From IMG/VR virus record IMGVR_UViG_3300045988_006129, positions 1-5,650 of that record: a stretch of 5,650 nucleotides of DNA; one strand, written 5' to 3'. The DNA is from a virus. Below the pieces are notes generated by a model, which was not told where the DNA came from, searched no databases, and worked only from the letters and a program-made list of their open reading frames with translations. Positions within the stretch are counted from its first letter, which is position 1, and every line of letters starts with the position of its first letter. The translations under genes were made by a program, and so were the position numbers. Of this stretch, positions 1-5,650 are shown piece by piece.

Positions 1-87
1 GGTTCGCCGGCGCTGGAGGCAGAGCATTCCTCCTTTACATTTGGACGCCGGTTCCCCTACGTCAATTTTACCAAAAAGAAAAAAAAC
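1..87. repeat. Direct terminal repeat, copy 1 (identical to 5564-5650). It marks a circular genome with a 5563-nt unit.
   Basis: Base-by-base comparison shows 1-87 (ggttcgccggcgctggagg...ccaaaaagaaaaaaaac) is identical to 5564-5650. The window ends exactly where the identity ends. Confidence 0.95.
65..73 (-). promoter_or_regulatory. Candidate extended -10 promoter (TGgTAAAAT) for the structural operon. A second copy lies in the terminal repeat at 5628-5636.
   Basis: The minus strand reads gcgttttttttctttttGGTAAAATtgac. TG-n-TAAAAT is preceded by a long T-rich tract. TTGACC and TTGACA hexamers lie upstream but at non-optimal spacing (21 nt or more). The site is about 105 nt upstream of the 34-aa ORF across the circular junction. 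Confidence 0.4.
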
Positions 88-164
88 GCAAGGTCAATTT
101 TTGTCAACCTCACGTTTTTTGATTAGTTCCAACTTATTTTTCCTTCGTTTTCTAGTCTTCTTAG

Positions 165-239
165 GTATTTGTATTTGTATCTTCCTTCGCAACTTGTTGA
201 GGATCTGTATTTTTCATCGTATCTGTATGGGAAGTATCT
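165..239. repeat. Cluster of GTATYT iteron-like short direct repeats in the AT-rich non-coding region
   Basis: GTATTT 165-170, GTATTT 171-176 and GTATCT 177-182 are tandem. Further copies are GTATTT 207-212, GTATCT 219-224, GTATGG 225-230 and GTATCT 234-239. ATCTGTAT occurs at 203-210 and 221-228. TTCCTTCG occurs at 140-147 and 182-189. Confidence 0.6.
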
Positions 240-315
240 TTCTCCTTTGTACCCTATTATGAATTGCACTGTATCGTCTTCGTTAAGGCAGAACTTTGTC
301 TGGATGGCCGTCCGG

Positions 316-333
316 TCGGCGCTGGTGCGCCGA
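316..333. other. GC-rich hairpin with a tetraloop
   Basis: tcggcgc (316-322) pairs with gcgccga (327-333), giving a perfect 7-bp stem with the loop tggt. Confidence 0.45.
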
Positions 334-337
334 ATGA

Positions 338-380
338 AAAGGACGGCGTAGCTTTCCGTAACTACGCCGTTCTGTCCTTT
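338..380 (-). terminator. GC-rich hairpin downstream of VP4, candidate intrinsic terminator
   Basis: The core stem acggcgtag (343-351) pairs with ctacgccgt (362-370) around a 10-nt loop. The outer arms aaaggac (338-344) and gtccttt (374-380) can extend the stem. On the minus-strand transcript the core stem is followed by CCTTTTCATT. Confidence 0.45.
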
Positions 381-382
381 AT

Positions 383-403
383 TGGCCGTTCTCCCCCCGG
401 CCA
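383..403. other. Hairpin immediately after the VP4 stop codon
   Basis: tggccg (383-388) pairs with cggcca (398-403), giving a 6-bp GC-rich stem with the 9-nt loop ttctccccc. Confidence 0.4.
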
Positions 404-404
404 C

Positions 405-1583
405 TTATATTTCATCTCTTCTTAGTTTGGAGAACTTTTCTTGATTTTTCGCGTCGATGTTGTTATAATGTTCTTGCAGACTATAGCCGTGTTGTGCGAG
501 CTGAGCGAATAGAGCGTCGTTGGCGATTTTCCGCCGCCTTCTCTTTATTTCCTTGAGTTCGTCCGACTCGGCTTTTATTATTAGAGCTTCGTAATCCTTT
601 TCCGTTTCGGCGTTTAGTGGTTCGCTGTTGCTGTGTTCAAGATCAAAGAGCTTGTCGAAGTATGCTGGCGGTTTACATCTTTTGCCCTTACTCAGCTGGA
701 TGCTGTCTTTTTGGTATATCTCATCTTTATGGTCTTCGTAGTATCTCCAGCCGATTGATGGTTTTGTGCTGATTCTGCTATCTTCCTCCTCGATACACAT
801 ATCGAGGAATTTTTCTTTTGCCTCACCATATGCTTTCTTGGAACAGTATGCTGCTGTATATGCCATGTCGTTCCATTCTGCCACTCCGATGATTACAAAG
901 CCTTTTCCCCATATCTGGTTGAGCCATGCGCAGGTGTAGTATACTCTGCCCTTCTGTTTTTTATACACCTTCAGTTCTTTCGGGTTTATGTATAAGCTGT
1001 ACACGATTGCATGATAATGCGGTCTGTGCGTTTTCGTGCCGTATTCTCCACTAGCGTAGTACATGAGTTTATTTTTCATGCCTACTTTTTCATCATATAC
1101 TTGGTATTCCCTTTTGTGGTATTCTGTCCACCTTCTCAGCCTTTTCCAGAATGCCGTCAGGTCATTATAGTCTAGTGTCAGGTTCGTTGTATACTCTCCG
1201 CTTGGAGCTTTCAGCACTCCGTTTTTGTCGATGCCTTTGCCTCTTTCGATATTGATTGGAACGTGCTTGTTGTCGTATGTCAACGTCAGGAACCAAGCCT
1301 GATCGTGATACGGTAATTCCATCTCCATTCGATTTGCCCAGCTCTTGCGTCTATCTAAAATGCATCCTTGGCAATGCTTACAAGGACAGATTACAATTTC
1401 GCCGGTTTTGATTTTTGCTTTGACTTCTCGCTCTCTTCTGCGCTGCGTTGTCATGTCGTCAGCTGGCGCTGTGTTCGGCTTGTTCGACATTCCGTATTTG
1501 ATATAGCGCTCTAGTGAACTGAAAAAATCATCTCCGTTTTTCTTCGCTCCGAAGATTCTAATGTTGGGTCTGCCACATGGCAT
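405..1583 (-). CDS. VP4: Replication initiation protein VP4, an HUH rolling-circle endonuclease of the phiX174 gpA family
   Basis: 392-aa ORF. The SD GGAGGTG lies 8 nt upstream of the ATG at 1583. RCR motif I is FLTLTY (nt 1275-1292). The HUH motif is HYHAIVY (nt 999-1019). The catalytic motif YTAAYCSKK has two Tyr residues spaced by 3 residues, as in phiX174 A protein YVAKYVNK (nt 834-860). A Cys cluster CPCKHCQGC precedes ILDRRKSWANR, which resembles the gokushovirus VP4 N-terminal region. Confidence 0.93.
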   Translation of the reverse strand: MPCGRPNIRIFGAKKNGDDFFSSLERYIKYGMSNKPNTAPADDMTTQRRREREVKAKIKTGEIVICPCKHCQGCILDRRKSWANRMEMELPYHDQAWFLTLTYDNKHVPINIERGKGIDKNGVLKAPSGEYTTNLTLDYNDLTAFWKRLRRWTEYHKREYQVYDEKVGMKNKLMYYASGEYGTKTHRPHYHAIVYSLYINPKELKVYKKQKGRVYYTCAWLNQIWGKGFVIIGVAEWNDMAYTAAYCSKKAYGEAKEKFLDMCIEEEDSRISTKPSIGWRYYEDHKDEIYQKDSIQLSKGKRCKPPAYFDKLFDLEHSNSEPLNAETEKDYEALIIKAESDELKEIKRRRRKIANDALFAQLAQHGYSLQEHYNNIDAKNQEKFSKLRRDEI

Positions 1584-1606
1584 GGATGTTTCACCTCCCG
1601 GGGTCG

Positions 1607-1649
1607 CACTGGGGGGAAATGTCCCTCTTGATTACATTTCCCCCCAGTG
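1607..1649. repeat. Perfect 16-bp inverted repeat (hairpin) between the RHH gene and VP4
   Basis: cactggggggaaatgt (1607-1622) is the exact reverse complement of acatttccccccagtg (1634-1649). The loop is 11 nt (ccctcttgatt). On the coding strand the repeat ends 10 nt before the VP4 SD. Confidence 0.9.
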
Positions 1650-1731
1650 ACACAAAAATGCGTCTGACGGTTACTGTCGGGCCTGTATTTTTGTTGCATT
1701 CAGTTTGCACGGCGAAGCCGTCAAACGGTGG

Positions 1732-1896
1732 TTAGTCGCTGTATCCAAGGATCTGTGCGAACATATCTATTGCATCTCTGACAATGTCGCTGTCCATGTA
1801 CTTGTCTCCTGTTTTATGAGCCTCTATATATTTCAGCTCGTCTACCTGTTTTTGTGTTAGGTTGATGTTGATCCTCTTTGCAATCTGACTTTTCAT
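1732..1896 (-). CDS. Ribbon-helix-helix (CopG/Arc/MetJ-like) DNA-binding protein, 54 aa
   Basis: The internal ATG at 1896 is preceded by AGGAGG with a 6-nt spacer (ggctatAGGAGGctaaccATG). The protein is MKSQIAKRININLTQKQVDELKYIEAHKTGDKYMDSDIVRDAIDMFAQILGYSD. It shows an N-terminal basic segment, an alternating beta-strand KRININL, helix A QKQVDELKYIEAH and helix B SDIVRDAIDMF, which is the classic RHH pattern. A TTGACA-17-TATATT promoter lies directly upstream. Confidence 0.68.
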   Translation of the reverse strand: MKSQIAKRININLTQKQVDELKYIEAHKTGDKYMDSDIVRDAIDMFAQILGYSD

Positions 1897-1937
1897 GGTT
1901 AGCCTCCTATAGCCAAGTGTGTGATTGGTACACTCAT

Positions 1938-1966
1938 AATATACACCTCTTTTCTCCACTTGTCAA
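1938..1966 (-). promoter_or_regulatory. Sigma70-type promoter for the RHH (and probably VP4) transcription unit
   Basis: The minus strand reads TAAaatagTTGACAagtggagaaaagaggtgTATATTatgag. The -35 TTGACA is at 1966..1961, the spacer is exactly 17 nt, and the -10 TATATT is at 1943..1938. The promoter starts 5 nt after the VP2 stop and lies about 40 nt upstream of the RHH ATG. Confidence 0.6.
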
Positions 1967-1971
1967 CTATT

Positions 1972-2910
1972 TTATGGAAGCATCGGAAGACCCGGCAGTA
2001 AGTTGAATTGGCCTTTTGCTCCAAGGCCTGCGTCAAGTCGCCCTTCGTTTTTGAACTGGTGACCTTCGGTTTTCTGTTCCTGCTGTGTGGTGCTGTCCAT
2101 TCGCTCACCCAGCTGGCCAACGGTTTTTGCGCTGCTGCTTACGGTTTGCTGTTGCATCTGTTCGAGGTGCTCAGCTGTCCAGTAGTCAGAACTTTGTTTC
2201 GCGTTGTTGATGGCCGTTTGAAAGTTCTGCACGATCTGTGCGGTGTTGTTGCCGTAGTCATACATTGCCTGCATGGTTGCGTTTTTGGCTGCTGGTGCTG
2301 TCAGAGCCTGGGCGTGTGCGAAGGTCTGACCGCCGCCGAGACTTCCATAGCCTCCTGATGGCGTTTGCGCCCCATAGCCGTTATAGGCTGCTAAGATAGG
2401 ATTCAATCCCGCTGCTTTAAGGTCTGCCACGCCTCTTTGATAGCTCGTGTTGGCCATTCGTTCTTGCCAGTCTCTTTGTGCTTTGGCCTCAGCTGAGTTA
2501 TACCGCATTGCGCTGCTTTGGCTTGCTGCACTCATGGCATTGGATGCTAGAGCGTTTCCCATGTTGAGAAGATTGCCCATCATCCATGTACCGGTCTGCA
2601 AGTCGTTGGCTGTTTTTGCGTTCGCTGCGTTGAAGCCCGCTGCTGTTTGAGCATTGTTGCTTGTCGGCGTTCCGAGTGCTGTTGCCAGCAGATTTCCCAG
2701 TGCGCTTGTGTTGCCGGTCTGGACGCTCCCACCTGCGCTTGTAGTGTCCTGTGCGGTGCTTCCCATGGTTGTACCGCTTTGGATTGTGTTTTGCATTGTG
2801 CCCTGCTGTTTTGCGCTGGAGGTGCTCCCTTTTATGCTGTTGTATATGCTGTATAATGTGTTTGCCAGAGTTAGGCCGCCTTTGACAAGGCCCATTAGCC
2901 CGATTGCCAT
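1972..2910 (-). CDS. VP2: Minor capsid / DNA pilot protein VP2
   Basis: 312-aa ORF. The SD AAGGAGGTG lies 5 nt upstream of the ATG at 2910. The protein has a hydrophobic N-terminus and long A/G/Q/S/T/N-rich low-complexity stretches. It carries the motif RDWQERMANTSYQRGVADLKAAGLNPILAAY, which I recall from gokushovirus VP2. It sits immediately downstream of VP1. Confidence 0.85.
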   Translation of the reverse strand: MAIGLMGLVKGGLTLANTLYSIYNSIKGSTSSAKQQGTMQNTIQSGTTMGSTAQDTTSAGGSVQTGNTSALGNLLATALGTPTSNNAQTAAGFNAANAKTANDLQTGTWMMGNLLNMGNALASNAMSAASQSSAMRYNSAEAKAQRDWQERMANTSYQRGVADLKAAGLNPILAAYNGYGAQTPSGGYGSLGGGQTFAHAQALTAPAAKNATMQAMYDYGNNTAQIVQNFQTAINNAKQSSDYWTAEHLEQMQQQTVSSSAKTVGQLGERMDSTTQQEQKTEGHQFKNEGRLDAGLGAKGQFNLLPGLPMLP

Positions 2911-2922
2911 TGTTCCACCTCC

Positions 2923-4545
2923 TTAGATGGTATCAAGGCCCGGGATGCTGTAGATAGGCATTGCCCTTGTCCACGTCTGGTCGAAGTAAAAGTTGCAGAT
3001 GAATTGACGGCTGTTTTGGCTTTCTACTGCGATCGTTCTATCAATGTTTTGTCTTCCCTCTTTAATCCAGTCGCTCGAGAGTCTCGGCAGTTCGTTGTAC
3101 TTGTCGGCATAGTGCCATGCGTCCAGCGTCTGAGCGTAGGTGCTGCGCATTTCGCCCGTGATCATGTTGGTGCGGTATCTGTAGTCTGCCCAAGCTTCCT
3201 GATAGCCGAATACTTCTTCGTCCTGTGTGTTGCCCTGTGCATAGATTTCCTGATTAAGCACCGCTTGCTCACTGAGGTTTGCAAGCATCGGGTCATAGTA
3301 GGAAAAGCGTGTGCTGCGTGTCCACAGTCGAGAAAGGCCTTGCTGATAGCTGTGATCTACTCGCACTGCTGCCAGACCGATGATGAAACCATGTTCCGTT
3401 GCGCTGTACGTTGCCATGTTCCTGCTCATCGTGGTCATGGAAAATGCTGCGGTATTGCCCTGCGGACTCGTCGAGTCCGTGCTAGACGTCTGAATGACCT
3501 GATTGATGTTGATAGGCAGTCTGTAGCCGCCGATGTATTCCGATCGGTCAAGTCGTGCGTCCGGACTCGTGACACCCCAAGCTCCCTGCAGGATTTCTTT
3601 GTACCGCGTGCCGGTGCGTGCATCTCTTTCCATAATGTGCTGCACTGCGATAGCCTGTCGGAGTTCGTTGATGGTCGCGGCTGTCACGTTGCTCATGTCT
3701 GCGCCCAGTACAGGGTGTAACGAATCGTCTATTTCAGTATAAAACTGTGCCGGTTTTGCTCCGCTCAGTTCATCGCCGTTTTTCCCGGCAAAGTACGGTA
3801 TGAACTGCTTGATTAATCCCACATCGTCGTTTGTCAGTTTTTCTTTCAGATTTGCTGTTCCATATCCGTAGATTGGTGCCGTTCCTGTCATCGGCAGCGT
3901 TATAGCCTCGCCTTTCTGCGGACTCGGCAGGCAGCTTGTAAAGTAGTCCTTATATTTACAGACTTTGAGCGGCAGGCCTCCGGCTTCGGTGTCGGTGAGT
4001 GCCGTTCCTGCGTTGCTTCCTGCGGTCGTGGCGTCCGTCTTGCTCATCGTGACAGGCTGCTGTAAATTTTCGTCTCGAAACCATTCGTTCCAGATTTTGG
4101 CGTATGCCCGGAAAGGCAGGCTGTTTACCTGAAGGTTTTCTACTCCGGTCGGAATGCCGAAGTAATCCGCCAGCGTGCCCACGTTCCAGCCTCCGGTCGG
4201 TGCAGTCGTTTTCGGAGTCGTGTACTCTACCTTTTCTGCCCAGAAGGTCGAGTCGTTTTGGCCCATGAGGTTTTCGAAATGCTCCCACAGCAGCCGCGAT
4301 GGTACGAAGAAGAAGTAAAAGTCACAGTAGCAGTTATCCATGACAGGATACAGCGGTGTGCTCATACGCATAAGCGCATTCAGATCGATCTTTGCCGTGT
4401 CTGCCGGGAGTACCTCGTCACAGTAGATCGGGACGAGATCGCCTTCGTTCATCGTGGTCAGCAGGCTATAATCCCGCTTGAATCTCGCACGCGGTATGTT
4501 TGCATGAGGCACTTGGCTGTAGTGCTGTTCGGCGTTTCGGTTCAT
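2923..4545 (-). CDS. VP1: Major capsid protein VP1 (Microviridae F-like jelly-roll capsid)
   Basis: 540-aa ORF. The N-terminus PRARFKRDYSLLTTMNEGDLVPIYCDEVLPADT and the C-terminus FYFDQTWTRAMPIYSIPGLDTI fit the microvirus capsid pattern. The size is typical of gokushovirus VP1. The ATG overlaps the VP3 stop as ATGA. Confidence 0.95.
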   Translation of the reverse strand: MNRNAEQHYSQVPHANIPRARFKRDYSLLTTMNEGDLVPIYCDEVLPADTAKIDLNALMRMSTPLYPVMDNCYCDFYFFFVPSRLLWEHFENLMGQNDSTFWAEKVEYTTPKTTAPTGGWNVGTLADYFGIPTGVENLQVNSLPFRAYAKIWNEWFRDENLQQPVTMSKTDATTAGSNAGTALTDTEAGGLPLKVCKYKDYFTSCLPSPQKGEAITLPMTGTAPIYGYGTANLKEKLTNDDVGLIKQFIPYFAGKNGDELSGAKPAQFYTEIDDSLHPVLGADMSNVTAATINELRQAIAVQHIMERDARTGTRYKEILQGAWGVTSPDARLDRSEYIGGYRLPININQVIQTSSTDSTSPQGNTAAFSMTTMSRNMATYSATEHGFIIGLAAVRVDHSYQQGLSRLWTRSTRFSYYDPMLANLSEQAVLNQEIYAQGNTQDEEVFGYQEAWADYRYRTNMITGEMRSTYAQTLDAWHYADKYNELPRLSSDWIKEGRQNIDRTIAVESQNSRQFICNFYFDQTWTRAMPIYSIPGLDTI

Positions 4546-5039
4546 TCCTTATTTTCTCCTTTCTGCACAGTTTCATCCGTGTCAGGATTGGGCTTTTTTT
4601 GTTCATCCTGCTGAATTTTGATGCCCATCTTGTCAAGCCATTCCTGTTCACCGGCTGTTGCCATCCAGCTTTCGAAGTTCATGCCGAATGCCTGGCGCAC
4701 ACTGAGCGGAAGCTGATTGAACTCTTCCCGCTTCTCGTTCATCATGTTCATGTATTCGGTGTAGGTCTGTGGCAGCTTGCTGGTGTCGATGTACCAGCCC
4801 GGTTTTGCCAGCACACTTTCGTCACCGGCAGCGTACCGGCTCAGAATTGCCATGACATCGCATTCGTCCTTATAGCTCTGGATTTTCTCGTAGGTGTCCA
4901 CTTCGCCCACCTTTTCCAGATACGGCTGTCCTCGGTCGTCATATCGTTCTTTGTACTCCGGTTCAAACCTGTTGCCCGGCTCGTTCGGCAGCGCCAGCGG
5001 TTTTTCGTCCTCGTAGGGTTTAAAGATTCTTACTCCCAT
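4542..5039 (-). CDS. VP3: Internal scaffolding protein VP3
   Basis: 165-aa acidic ORF directly upstream of VP1, with a 4-nt ATGA overlap. The SD AAGGAG lies 8 nt upstream of the ATG at 5039. Size, position and the segment EEFNQLPLSVRQAFGMNFESW resemble gokushovirus VP3. Confidence 0.78.
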   Translation of the reverse strand: MGVRIFKPYEDEKPLALPNEPGNRFEPEYKERYDDRGQPYLEKVGEVDTYEKIQSYKDECDVMAILSRYAAGDESVLAKPGWYIDTSKLPQTYTEYMNMMNEKREEFNQLPLSVRQAFGMNFESWMATAGEQEWLDKMGIKIQQDEQKKPNPDTDETVQKGENKE

Positions 5040-5283
5040 TGAGCTGCTCCTTTTTCATGAGTTCGATGTTGTACATGAGCATTGGCAGCTCCAGCGGCTT
5101 GATCTTGCCGCTTTCGTTGTCGTACTTGCCTAAAAGATAGATCCGCTTATCTTCGCAGTCGGCTTTCTCCATCTCCTGTGCCATCCACTTGAAGGTGCGG
5201 TCGGCCACCTTTTCATTGACCACGATCAGATTGCCGAAGATGCCAGACAGCTCATCTTTCACTGCGTATACCTGAAATTCCAT
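5020..5283 (-). CDS. Small non-structural protein, VP5-like, function unconfirmed
   Basis: 87-aa ORF. The SD AAGGAG lies 7 nt upstream of the ATG at 5283 and overlaps the preceding stop codon. The N-terminus MEFQVYAVKDELSGIFGNLIVVNEKVADRTF fits the h-Y-x-h-x-D...F...N..A.R.F pattern I recall from small gokushovirus proteins encoded upstream of VP3. The ORF overlaps the VP3 start by 20 nt. Confidence 0.6.
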   Translation of the reverse strand: MEFQVYAVKDELSGIFGNLIVVNEKVADRTFKWMAQEMEKADCEDKRIYLLGKYDNESGKIKPLELPMLMYNIELMKKEQLNGSKNL

Positions 5284-5295
5284 GATGATTCTCCT

Positions 5296-5415
5296 TTACA
5301 GTCGGATGCCGCCGCGCGACGGCTTCGGGTTGACGTTGATCTTCTTCGTCTTTTTTGCGGTGTTGGTAAACACTCGCTTATCTTTTTTGGGATTGACCGG
5401 CATACGATGTGCCAT
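5296..5415 (-). CDS. Small highly basic DNA-binding/packaging protein (gokushovirus VP8-like, functional analogue of phiX174 J)
   Basis: Hand-translated 39-aa ORF, not in the supplied track: MAHRMPVNPKKDKRVFTNTAKKTKKINVNPKPSRGGIRL. It has 12 Lys/Arg residues and 1 acidic residue. The C-terminal RGGIRL matches the RGGIR(F/L) tail I recall from chlamydiaphage/gokushovirus ORF8 proteins. The SD AAGGAGG lies 6 nt upstream of the ATG at 5415. Confidence 0.78.
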   Translation of the reverse strand: MAHRMPVNPKKDKRVFTNTAKKTKKINVNPKPSRGGIRL

Positions 5416-5416
5416 A

Positions 5417-5521
5417 TTATTCCTCCTTATCCAGTTCCATGGCTTGATAGATCTTGTCCAGCATCGCAAGGATCTTCCTCAACTGATTAAAAATCCCGCG
5501 AATGTCTTTCAAAGTGATCAT
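5417..5521 (-). CDS. Hypothetical 34-aa protein, predicted amphipathic helix, first gene of the structural operon
   Basis: Hand-translated: MITLKDIRGIFNQLRKILAMLDKIYQAMELDKEE. The SD AAAGGAGGTG lies 5 nt upstream of the ATG at 5521. The stop TAA is separated by 1 nt from the next gene's ATG (TAAtATG). I recognise no family. Confidence 0.5.
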   Translation of the reverse strand: MITLKDIRGIFNQLRKILAMLDKIYQAMELDKEE

Positions 5522-5563
5522 GGCAGCACCTCCTTTCTGTGGTTGATTTGTGCAAATACCACC

Positions 5564-5650
5564 GGTTCGCCGGCGCTGGAGGCAGAGCATTCCTCCTTTA
5601 CATTTGGACGCCGGTTCCCCTACGTCAATTTTACCAAAAAGAAAAAAAAC
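5564..5650. repeat. Direct terminal repeat, copy 2 (identical to 1-87)
   Basis: Exact 87/87 identity with the window start. The offset of 5563 nt gives the genome length. Confidence 0.95.

Follow-up and report, generated by a model that had tools for sequence, protein, structure and literature searches.

What does a long, perfect hairpin do in front of the replication gene of a small phage? The question is raised by a 5,650-nt gokushovirus-like microvirus genome (IMG/VR record IMGVR_UViG_3300045988_006129, positions 1 to 5,650; this whole stretch is called the window below), in which all recognisable genes lie on the minus strand and the hairpin separates the gene for the replication protein VP4 (Rep) from that for an RHH-like protein. 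An earlier note, made from the sequence alone, had offered four roles: an origin element for an HUH initiator, the operator of the RHH protein, an mRNA structure controlling VP4, or a priming signal on the packaged single-stranded DNA (ssDNA). Comparison with related loci leads us to read the hairpin as, probably, the viral-strand (double-strand) rolling-circle origin used by the adjacent HUH initiator VP4.

A Perfect Hairpin Precedes VP4

A repeat search of the window returned a perfect inverted repeat, whose 16-nt arms are 100% complementary and enclose an 11-nt loop (Table 1), and only one further inverted repeat, 79% complementary. When perfect inverted repeats with a loop of 3–30 nt were counted in 200 dinucleotide-preserving shuffles of the window, the longest was usually 7–9 bp and at most 12 bp. 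The stem and loop described in the earlier note are thus borne out, as is their location directly upstream of the Rep ribosome-binding site, between the RHH and VP4 genes: on the coding strand, 23 nt separate the end of the hairpin from the VP4 ATG, and 7 nt separate it from the Shine–Dalgarno sequence. No T-run follows it on either strand, and the note was right that it is hence no canonical intrinsic terminator. The note had also proposed folding the region as RNA and as ssDNA. The hairpin dominates the predicted intergenic folds (z = -4.0 for RNA, -5.2 and -5.3 for the two DNA strands; no shuffle was as stable), and the minimum-free-energy RNA structure, at -61.5 kcal/mol for 171 nt, keeps it whole.

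The Stem Changes on Both Sides and Remains Paired

A protein-guided search of IMG/VR gave 41 loci with VP4 proteins 45–99% identical to that of the window, and a near-perfect hairpin of 15–20 bp lies 19–28 nt upstream of VP4 in essentially all relatives (39 examined). The arm sequences vary by VP4 sub-clade (CACTGGGGGGAAATGT, AGTGGGGGGAATAGAC, TCAGTGGGCCCCAATAAC, TCACCTAGCCCCAATAAC, TCAGTAAGCCCCTATAAC, and CAACTGGCCCATATAC), and both arms change together. Alignment of related microviruses for compensatory changes, as suggested in the note, showed the hairpin to be conserved: in an alignment of 34 sequences, 95% of the cells were paired and 14 of the 18 pairs had changed on both sides, giving a covariation score of 0.393, in comparison with 0.098 for column shuffles and at most 0.105 for slid partners. 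One-sided intermediates of the G–U type were not seen inside the stem in this alignment, and across all clades 50 of the 61 distinct hairpins were perfect. Such strict maintenance of Watson–Crick pairing points to a structure acting at the DNA level. We also considered a G·T bias among the stem mismatches of the CTTGAT strand, but after optimisation of the pairing register the counts were 3 vs. 3, which is no evidence for one.

The hairpin of a 99%-identical relative (L026/L027, IMGVR_UViG_3300045988_020022) has C8 in its right arm opposite G6 and lacks two bases after the arm; either a sequencing error at the homopolymer or slippage within the stem's G/C run accounts for this. When viral contigs were scanned with one 16-nt arm, four near-identical relatives were found. 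The scan also hit about 20 related IMG/VR contigs of ~15 kb (among L001–L025) that contain a single copy of the window arm without its partner; these matches, repeated within one contig family, were taken as chance or unrelated.

Loop Core and Flank Are Invariant and Resemble a Nick Site

On the + strand of the window, the element reads arm–CCCTCTTGATT–arm–(GT)GACACAAAAA, that is, arm–nnnCTTGAT–arm–GTGACAC. In coding-strand reading, the 34 aligned relatives (alignment A1) show no variation in the loop core, TCAAGA, or in the 5′ flank, TTGTGTCA. CTTG is invariant in all 34 distinct loop contexts of every clade, the loop reading (A/T/C)CTTGAT on the + strand, and the distance from CTTG to the start of TGAC(A/G) is 16 nt in 17 loci and 17 nt in 73, regardless of a stem length that ranges from 9 to 21 bp. 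An invariant loop core and flank beside freely changing stems is the pattern of HUH origins with the nick site in the loop.

The core itself is familiar from other initiators. The experimentally defined phiX174 origin, CAACTTG^ATATTAATAACACTATAGACCAC, shares it (CAACTTG^ATA; the rep_origin is annotated at 4306, i.e., after G4305) and carries GACCAC at the same distance from the nick as the GTGACAC flank here, and CTTGATA is the double-strand origin nick consensus of pC194-type (Rep_1) plasmids (PMC10378824). VP4 has the HUH and YxxxY motifs of phiX174-type initiators, and all 24 homologues compared share its H189, H191, Y242, and Y246; this HUH rolling-circle initiator presumably acts on the hairpin. 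Together, the loop core, the flank at fixed spacing, and the HUH and YxxxY motifs are what lead us to read the hairpin as the VP4 origin. VP4 would then nick between G1630 and A1631 on the + (non-coding) strand, with GTGACAC as a candidate recognition sequence. The window has no other CTTGAT-in-loop candidate for the nick site, and no direct repeats flank the loop. The option of an origin element raised in the earlier note is therefore the best supported of its four; what does not stand is its assumption of the coding strand, as CTTG^AT lies on the non-coding one.

Invariant as well among the 24 diverse homologues are C3 and P6 (residues 3–6) and C68, C71, and C74 (in CPCKHCQGC, residues 68–74) of VP4; this pattern suggests that a small module, binding metal or DNA, precedes the HUH domain on its N-terminal side. 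In four loci (L034, L037, L040, and L044), the flank TGACACAA is followed ~4–8 nt later by an inverted copy (TTGTGTCA or TTGTCA); the two together make up either another small hairpin or paired binding sites in inverted arrangement. Bacterial genomes scanned for CTCTTGAT-N14–17-TGACACAA gave at least 120 matches, and none among those listed had the hairpin; they are for that reason attributed to chance and give no host or prophage information. Judged by promoter scans and inspection, the conserved flank forms no convincing promoter of either the sigma-70 or the Bacteroidetes type.

In the mechanism that we propose, the 16-bp inverted repeat would extrude or melt in supercoiled replicative-form DNA and expose the loop as a single strand. 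VP4 would dock on the GTGACAC flank, 16–17 nt from the nick core, and cut CTTG^AT at G1630/A1631 of the + strand, where its predicted target contains CCCTCTTGATTAC, so that one tyrosine of YxxxY becomes linked to the 5′ end. A host polymerase would extend the 3′-OH; after one round, the second tyrosine would cut the regenerated site, and the displaced strand would be circularised and packaged.

The Hairpin Is Inherited with VP4

Recombinant genomes show with which gene the element travels. Four IMG/VR genomes have VP4 and the whole intergenic region almost identical to the window and diverge from ~1720 onward, whereas GenBank relatives are 82% identical over 1736–5538, which spans the RHH and structural genes, and are unrelated at the DNA level in VP4 and the intergenic region (megablast). 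The window genome is modular, with one breakpoint at ~1720–1736, at the RHH stop codon. (The GenBank relatives, MG945569 and MG945797, come from pig faeces.) It is VP4, and neither the structural genes nor the RHH gene, with which the hairpin and the intergenic region are inherited: in L028, VP4 is 98% identical to that of the window and the hairpin is identical, but the RHH protein is only 40% identical, while L040, L041, L046, and MG945569, with RHH proteins 74–90% identical, have a different stem type, the VP4 of the first three being ~51–57% identical to that of the window. As the stem follows VP4 and not RHH, the hairpin belongs to the replication module as a Rep-specific element, and this counts against an RHH operator.

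The Element Occurs in Two Orientations, and Strand Composition Follows

A profile-guided search added 66 more distant loci with VP4 proteins 30–38% identical. Many of them have the same element (hairpin, loop nCTTGAT, flank GTGACAC), but it faces either way with respect to the genes and lies at various positions. In the forward class of 14 loci, CTTGAT lies on the coding strand; it consists of 12 loci and the cultured gokushoviruses Chp2 and SpV4, whose elements (at 2904–2941, between VP3 and ORF8/VP4, and at 512–544, respectively) have CTTGAT or CTTGTT on the coding strand. In the inverted class, the window and 75 other loci, it lies on the non-coding strand. The inverted loci comprise the window clade, with the element just upstream of VP4, a small group with the element 7 nt upstream, and ~30 loci in which it closely follows VP4 on the downstream side. 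The flank inverts along with the loop, and an RNA function would not survive inversion; this argues for a strand-specific element at the DNA level.

The base composition of the strands changes with orientation. We measured the skew (T-A)/(T+A) at fourfold-degenerate sites of the coding strand and obtained +0.76 for phiX174, +0.35 for Chp2, +0.38 for SpV4, and +0.50 to +0.74 for 11 of 13 forward loci; the window has -0.46, and all inverted loci fall between -0.46 and -0.76. Under strict element criteria, the coding strand is T-rich in 13 of the 14 forward loci and A-rich in 76 of the 76 inverted ones (P = 8.5e-15, Fisher test, which ignores phylogeny). The skew flips with orientation, and the CTTGAT-bearing strand is therefore the T-rich strand in both classes. 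The non-coding DNA of the window is likewise T-rich on the + strand (T 0.32 vs. A 0.21). A preference of ssDNA phages for NNT codons has been attributed to C-to-T pressure on the single-stranded genome and marks the packaged strand (PMC3278643). One inverted locus, L102, has only forward loci as its nearest VP4 relatives (the closest, L103, at 46%) and a skew of -0.56, in comparison with +0.50 in L103; its inversion seems to have arisen independently.

Microvirus Rep proteins nick the strand that is then displaced and packaged. As the nick motif of the window lies opposite all genes, the strand that this lineage displaces and encapsidates is predicted to be the antisense one. We lean, with some reserve, toward the wider proposal that a large, gut-dominated clade of gokushovirus-like phages has an origin inverted relative to the genes and packages the antisense strand, making them negative-sense microviruses; that at least one further inversion, in L102, occurred independently; and that the element, with loop CTTG^AT and flank GTGACAC, is the first viral-strand origin identified in gokushoviruses. 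The literature searched contained no account of a gokushovirus origin hairpin or of antisense packaging, which is not proof of absence. Gokushoviruses are the most abundant ssDNA phages of animal guts, and the element offers for them a precise candidate nick site, a recognition flank, and a cognate Rep. If the proposal is true, the orientation and annotation of microvirus genomes would change, and the interpretation of strand-specific viromics and models of mutational bias and codon usage in ssDNA phages would be affected. The two classes would, as a natural experiment, allow translational selection to be told apart from strand-specific mutation pressure, and it would have to be explained how the phages cope with transcription and replication running head-on. 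The element is also useful as a marker, for locating origins and predicting which strand is packaged across thousands of microvirus genomes from metagenomes, and, for new HUH-tag enzymes, as a candidate substrate.

Several points weigh against an antisense-packaging origin. In the VP4 tree, most inverted loci fall in one clade, so that they may represent only a few independent events and the Fisher test overstates independence. The G/C skew is not mirrored, being approximately -0.16 in forward loci and ~0 in inverted ones; to explain these values, with which it agrees, a contribution of the coding strand has to be added to one of the packaged strand. L147, L136, and the cultured phiMH2K are exceptions to the skew rule, being mildly A-rich with a strong excess of C over G, though forward or unclear in orientation. 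The comparison assumes that the deposited Chp2 and SpV4 records show the virion strand. Cleavage and nick position are read from a short motif match, a 6–7-mer and a 5-mer at fixed spacing, and a complementary-strand origin on the packaged strand would give the same strand specificity, conservation, and linkage. Antisense packaging would, moreover, set replication head-on against transcription. Microviridae are described as positive-sense only (PMC4406084, PMC12450867), and even a single gene on the complementary strand was called highly unusual by Roux et al. 2012 (PMC3394797).

The Bdellovibrio phage phiMH2K (L150) has no long hairpin of this type. In its VP3–VP5 intergenic region (2863–2945), the coding strand has two small hairpins, each followed by CCCTTGAC(T/AC), and its fourfold sites have frequencies of 0.44 for A, 0.23 for C, 0.09 for G, and 0.23 for T on the coding strand.

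Alternative Roles of the Hairpin

The hairpin could instead be a complementary-strand origin, at which host primase, PriA, or RNA polymerase would prime duplex conversion of the packaged ssDNA while VP4 nicks elsewhere, a role that we regard as unlikely. Its great stability as ssDNA on either strand would suit such a role, as would the folding of the intergenic region into three hairpins, like the priming regions of phiX174 and G4, and, priming being strand-specific, the role is compatible with the association of orientation and skew. Conserved loops are combined with variable stems in ssoA-type origins, too. The loop, however, holds the nick core of phiX174 and pC194-type initiators and no known priming motif, the flank at fixed distance mirrors the layout of the phiX174 origin, the element is exchanged together with VP4, and VP4 would be left without a comparable nick candidate in the window. 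Recognition motifs known from complementary-strand origins (phiX174 n′ site, G4 oriC, and plasmid ssoA) include RSB and the CS-6 TAGCGT loop of ssoA; no CS-6-like loop occurred among the elements compared, and PriA and primase sites have no usable consensus. Rep-adjacent hairpins of other microvirus clades have tentatively been read as complementary-strand priming sites (PMC9865509 section 3.8). Were priming, the last option of the earlier note, true, the packaged strand would probably be the + rather than the coding strand.

It is rather improbable that VP4 binds the element only as a double-stranded site, repressing its own gene or otherwise controlling transcription without nicking there. 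The distance of 23 nt to the VP4 start codon and the covariation with VP4 would agree with this, and autoregulation at the origin is a trait of the Rep proteins of several rolling-circle replicons. But the element is downstream of VP4 in ~30 related loci, and in Chp2 another gene lies between the two, so that autoregulation is not its general role; perfect complementarity over 10–21 bp with free change of sequence indicates, furthermore, a structure and not protein half-sites. As a secondary effect in the window clade, alongside an origin, autoregulation is possible.

An mRNA element in the 5′ untranslated region of VP4, affecting transcript stability or translation, for example, by an alternative fold that sequesters the Shine–Dalgarno sequence, seems very improbable. 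Transcription of VP4 from the promoter-like site at 1966–1938 would include the hairpin, and the RNA fold is very stable, as given above; its minimum-free-energy form, however, leaves the hairpin intact, and the arm sequences able to pair with the Shine–Dalgarno sequence vary between clades. Relative to transcription, the element is found either way round, and in some loci it follows VP4; loop and flank are kept as DNA, and the 14 covarying pairs include no G–U intermediates. None of the Rfam 15 covariance models matched at E<=1 on either strand. An mRNA switch, as suggested in the earlier note, is accordingly not a convincing primary role.

The suggested operator of the RHH-like protein is not supported and has a very small chance of being correct. 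An RHH-like gene is directly upstream in every genome of the window clade, and RHH repressors commonly control rep genes of rolling-circle plasmids, as CopG does with RepB of pMV158. Against these stand the stem's independence of RHH in the recombinants and the presence of the element in Chp2, SpV4, and many loci and clades with no detectable RHH homologue. We know of no RHH operator that resembles a 16-bp perfect palindrome with an 11-nt spacer.

Least credible of all is a dif-like XerC/D recombination site, of the type known in enterobacterial gokushovirus prophages, or an intrinsic terminator: the hairpin is palindromic, and short non-coding regions of some gokushoviruses contain dif motifs of 28 bp (bioRxiv 10.1101/743518), but the architecture is 16-11-16 instead of 11-6-11, no dif-like matches were found in the window, the hairpin was in none of the bacterial loop–flank matches listed (at least 120), and a T-run is missing on both strands.

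Comparison with Known Systems

The closest parallel is the origin recognised by gene A of phiX174 (30-bp ori, nick G4305^A4306), which has the nick core ACTTG^AT, a GAC(C)AC-type block ~16–17 nt downstream of the nick, and a two-tyrosine HUH initiator, in the same virus family. It differs in lying inside gene A, on the coding (virion) strand, and with an A+T-rich spacer, whereas the element described here is intergenic, and its 16-bp covarying hairpin bears the nick core in the loop, on the non-coding strand. The element thereby appears to depart from the Microviridae norm, a nick on the gene-carrying, positive-sense virion strand, as the motif lies on the non-coding strand in the window and 75 loci.

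The pairing of an RHH gene with rep resembles the copG–repB arrangement of rolling-circle plasmids. Double-strand origins of pC194/pUB110-type (Rep_1) plasmids have the nick sequence CTTGATA (PMC10378824) and are likewise upstream of rep; these plasmids have a Rep of family PF01446 (here PF23343), no packaging, and no comparable long perfect hairpin at the nick. CRESS-DNA viruses (gemini-, circo-, and nanoviruses), pT181, and pMV158 also have a conserved nick in a hairpin loop, with a covarying stem, next to rep; their loop motif is NANTATTAC, in comparison with nCTTGAT here, the Rep families differ, and there are no clear iterons in our case. Hairpins of reekeekee- and roodoodoo-microviruses (Virus Evol 2022, PMC9865509) are, as described, similar in being intergenic and Rep-adjacent, with an identical loop and compensatory changes in the stem. 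They belong to different clades; their function was left open, the authors leaning to complementary-strand priming, and the report contains no analysis of orientation or strand composition (PMC9865509). If antisense packaging holds, the window would also resemble the unrelated, eukaryotic Anelloviridae, negative-sense circular ssDNA viruses with genes on the strand complementary to the encapsidated one.

Other Features of the Window

Table 1. Coordinates of the hairpin, other intergenic elements, and genes of the window
Feature	Position	Strand	Remarks
Left arm, CACTGGGGGGAAATGT	1607-1622	+	Complementary to 1634-1649
Loop, CCCTCTTGATT	1623-1633	+	Contains CTTGAT core, 1627-1632
Right arm, ACATTTCCCCCCAGTG	1634-1649	+	Complementary to 1607-1622
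Conserved flank, GTGACAC (TTGTGTCA on coding strand)	1647-1653	+	Invariant in alignment A1; overlaps stem base
Second, imperfect hairpin, ACAAAAAT...ATTTTTGT around GTCTGACGG/CTGTCGGGC	1652-1694	+	ssDNA fold of + strand
Motif CCTGTATTTTTGTTGC, window version of clade-conserved CATGGAYWWWTGTTG	1682-1697	+	~35-45 nt from hairpin; same place in L031-L077
Third, small G+C-rich hairpin, TTTGCACGGCGAAGCCGTCAAA	1704-1725	+	Just after RHH stop codon; predicted folds
Shine–Dalgarno of VP4, GGGAGGTGA	1591-1599	minus	Read from sequence; 7 nt past hairpin on coding strand
VP4/Rep	405-1583	minus	Pfam PF23343, E=1.8e-13; PHROG 942 replication initiation protein, E=1e-83; ATG 1583-1581
RHH-like gene, 54 aa	1735-1896	minus	Pfam RHH_1 (weak); tblastn homologues
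VP2 pilot protein	1972-2910	minus	
VP1	2923-4545	minus	Phage_F, E=4e-164
VP3 scaffold	4542-5039	minus	
ORF5	5020-5283	minus	

The intergenic region holds further elements beside the main hairpin (Table 1). The second, imperfect hairpin, which may be part of the origin or serve complementary-strand priming, is not conserved as a structure in relatives, and RNAalifold predicted no conserved second structure in the 125 nt next to the main hairpin. The motif overlapping it, which reads CAACAWWWRTCCATG on the coding strand in its clade-conserved form, could be a second VP4 binding locus. Hairpins similar to the third one are present at the same place in some relatives.

Among the remaining open reading frames (ORFs), a very basic one of 57 aa at 5296–5469 (-) matches PHROG 10695 (E=5e-9) and probably encodes a small DNA-binding (VP8/J-like) protein; a second 57-aa ORF, at 5417–5590, overlaps it and has no match. 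The 93-aa ORF at 123–404 has no family match and may not be a gene. Downstream of VP4, terminator-like hairpins with T-runs at 370–343 (-) and 120–81 (-), with 11 pairs in one and 17 in the other, probably mark the end of a single transcription unit.

The RHH-like gene is, on the recombinant and cross-clade comparisons above, better taken as the context of the hairpin than as its partner. Homologues with 35–98% identity lie at the same place, directly upstream of the hairpin, in all loci of the window clade, and in the closest relatives the upstream gene is a diverged allele of the same family (tblastn). Matches to Pfam RHH_1 are weak (E=0.005, 3 of 14 homologues), and profile searches of the PDB with the protein found nothing significant. 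A single-sequence AlphaFold model of moderate confidence (pLDDT 70.6) has an extended N-terminus and two helices; in the sequence, a KRININLT strand motif is followed by two helices. The gene has a sigma-70-like promoter at 1966–1938 (-), TTGACA-17-TATATT, which matches the consensus at 11 of 12 positions.

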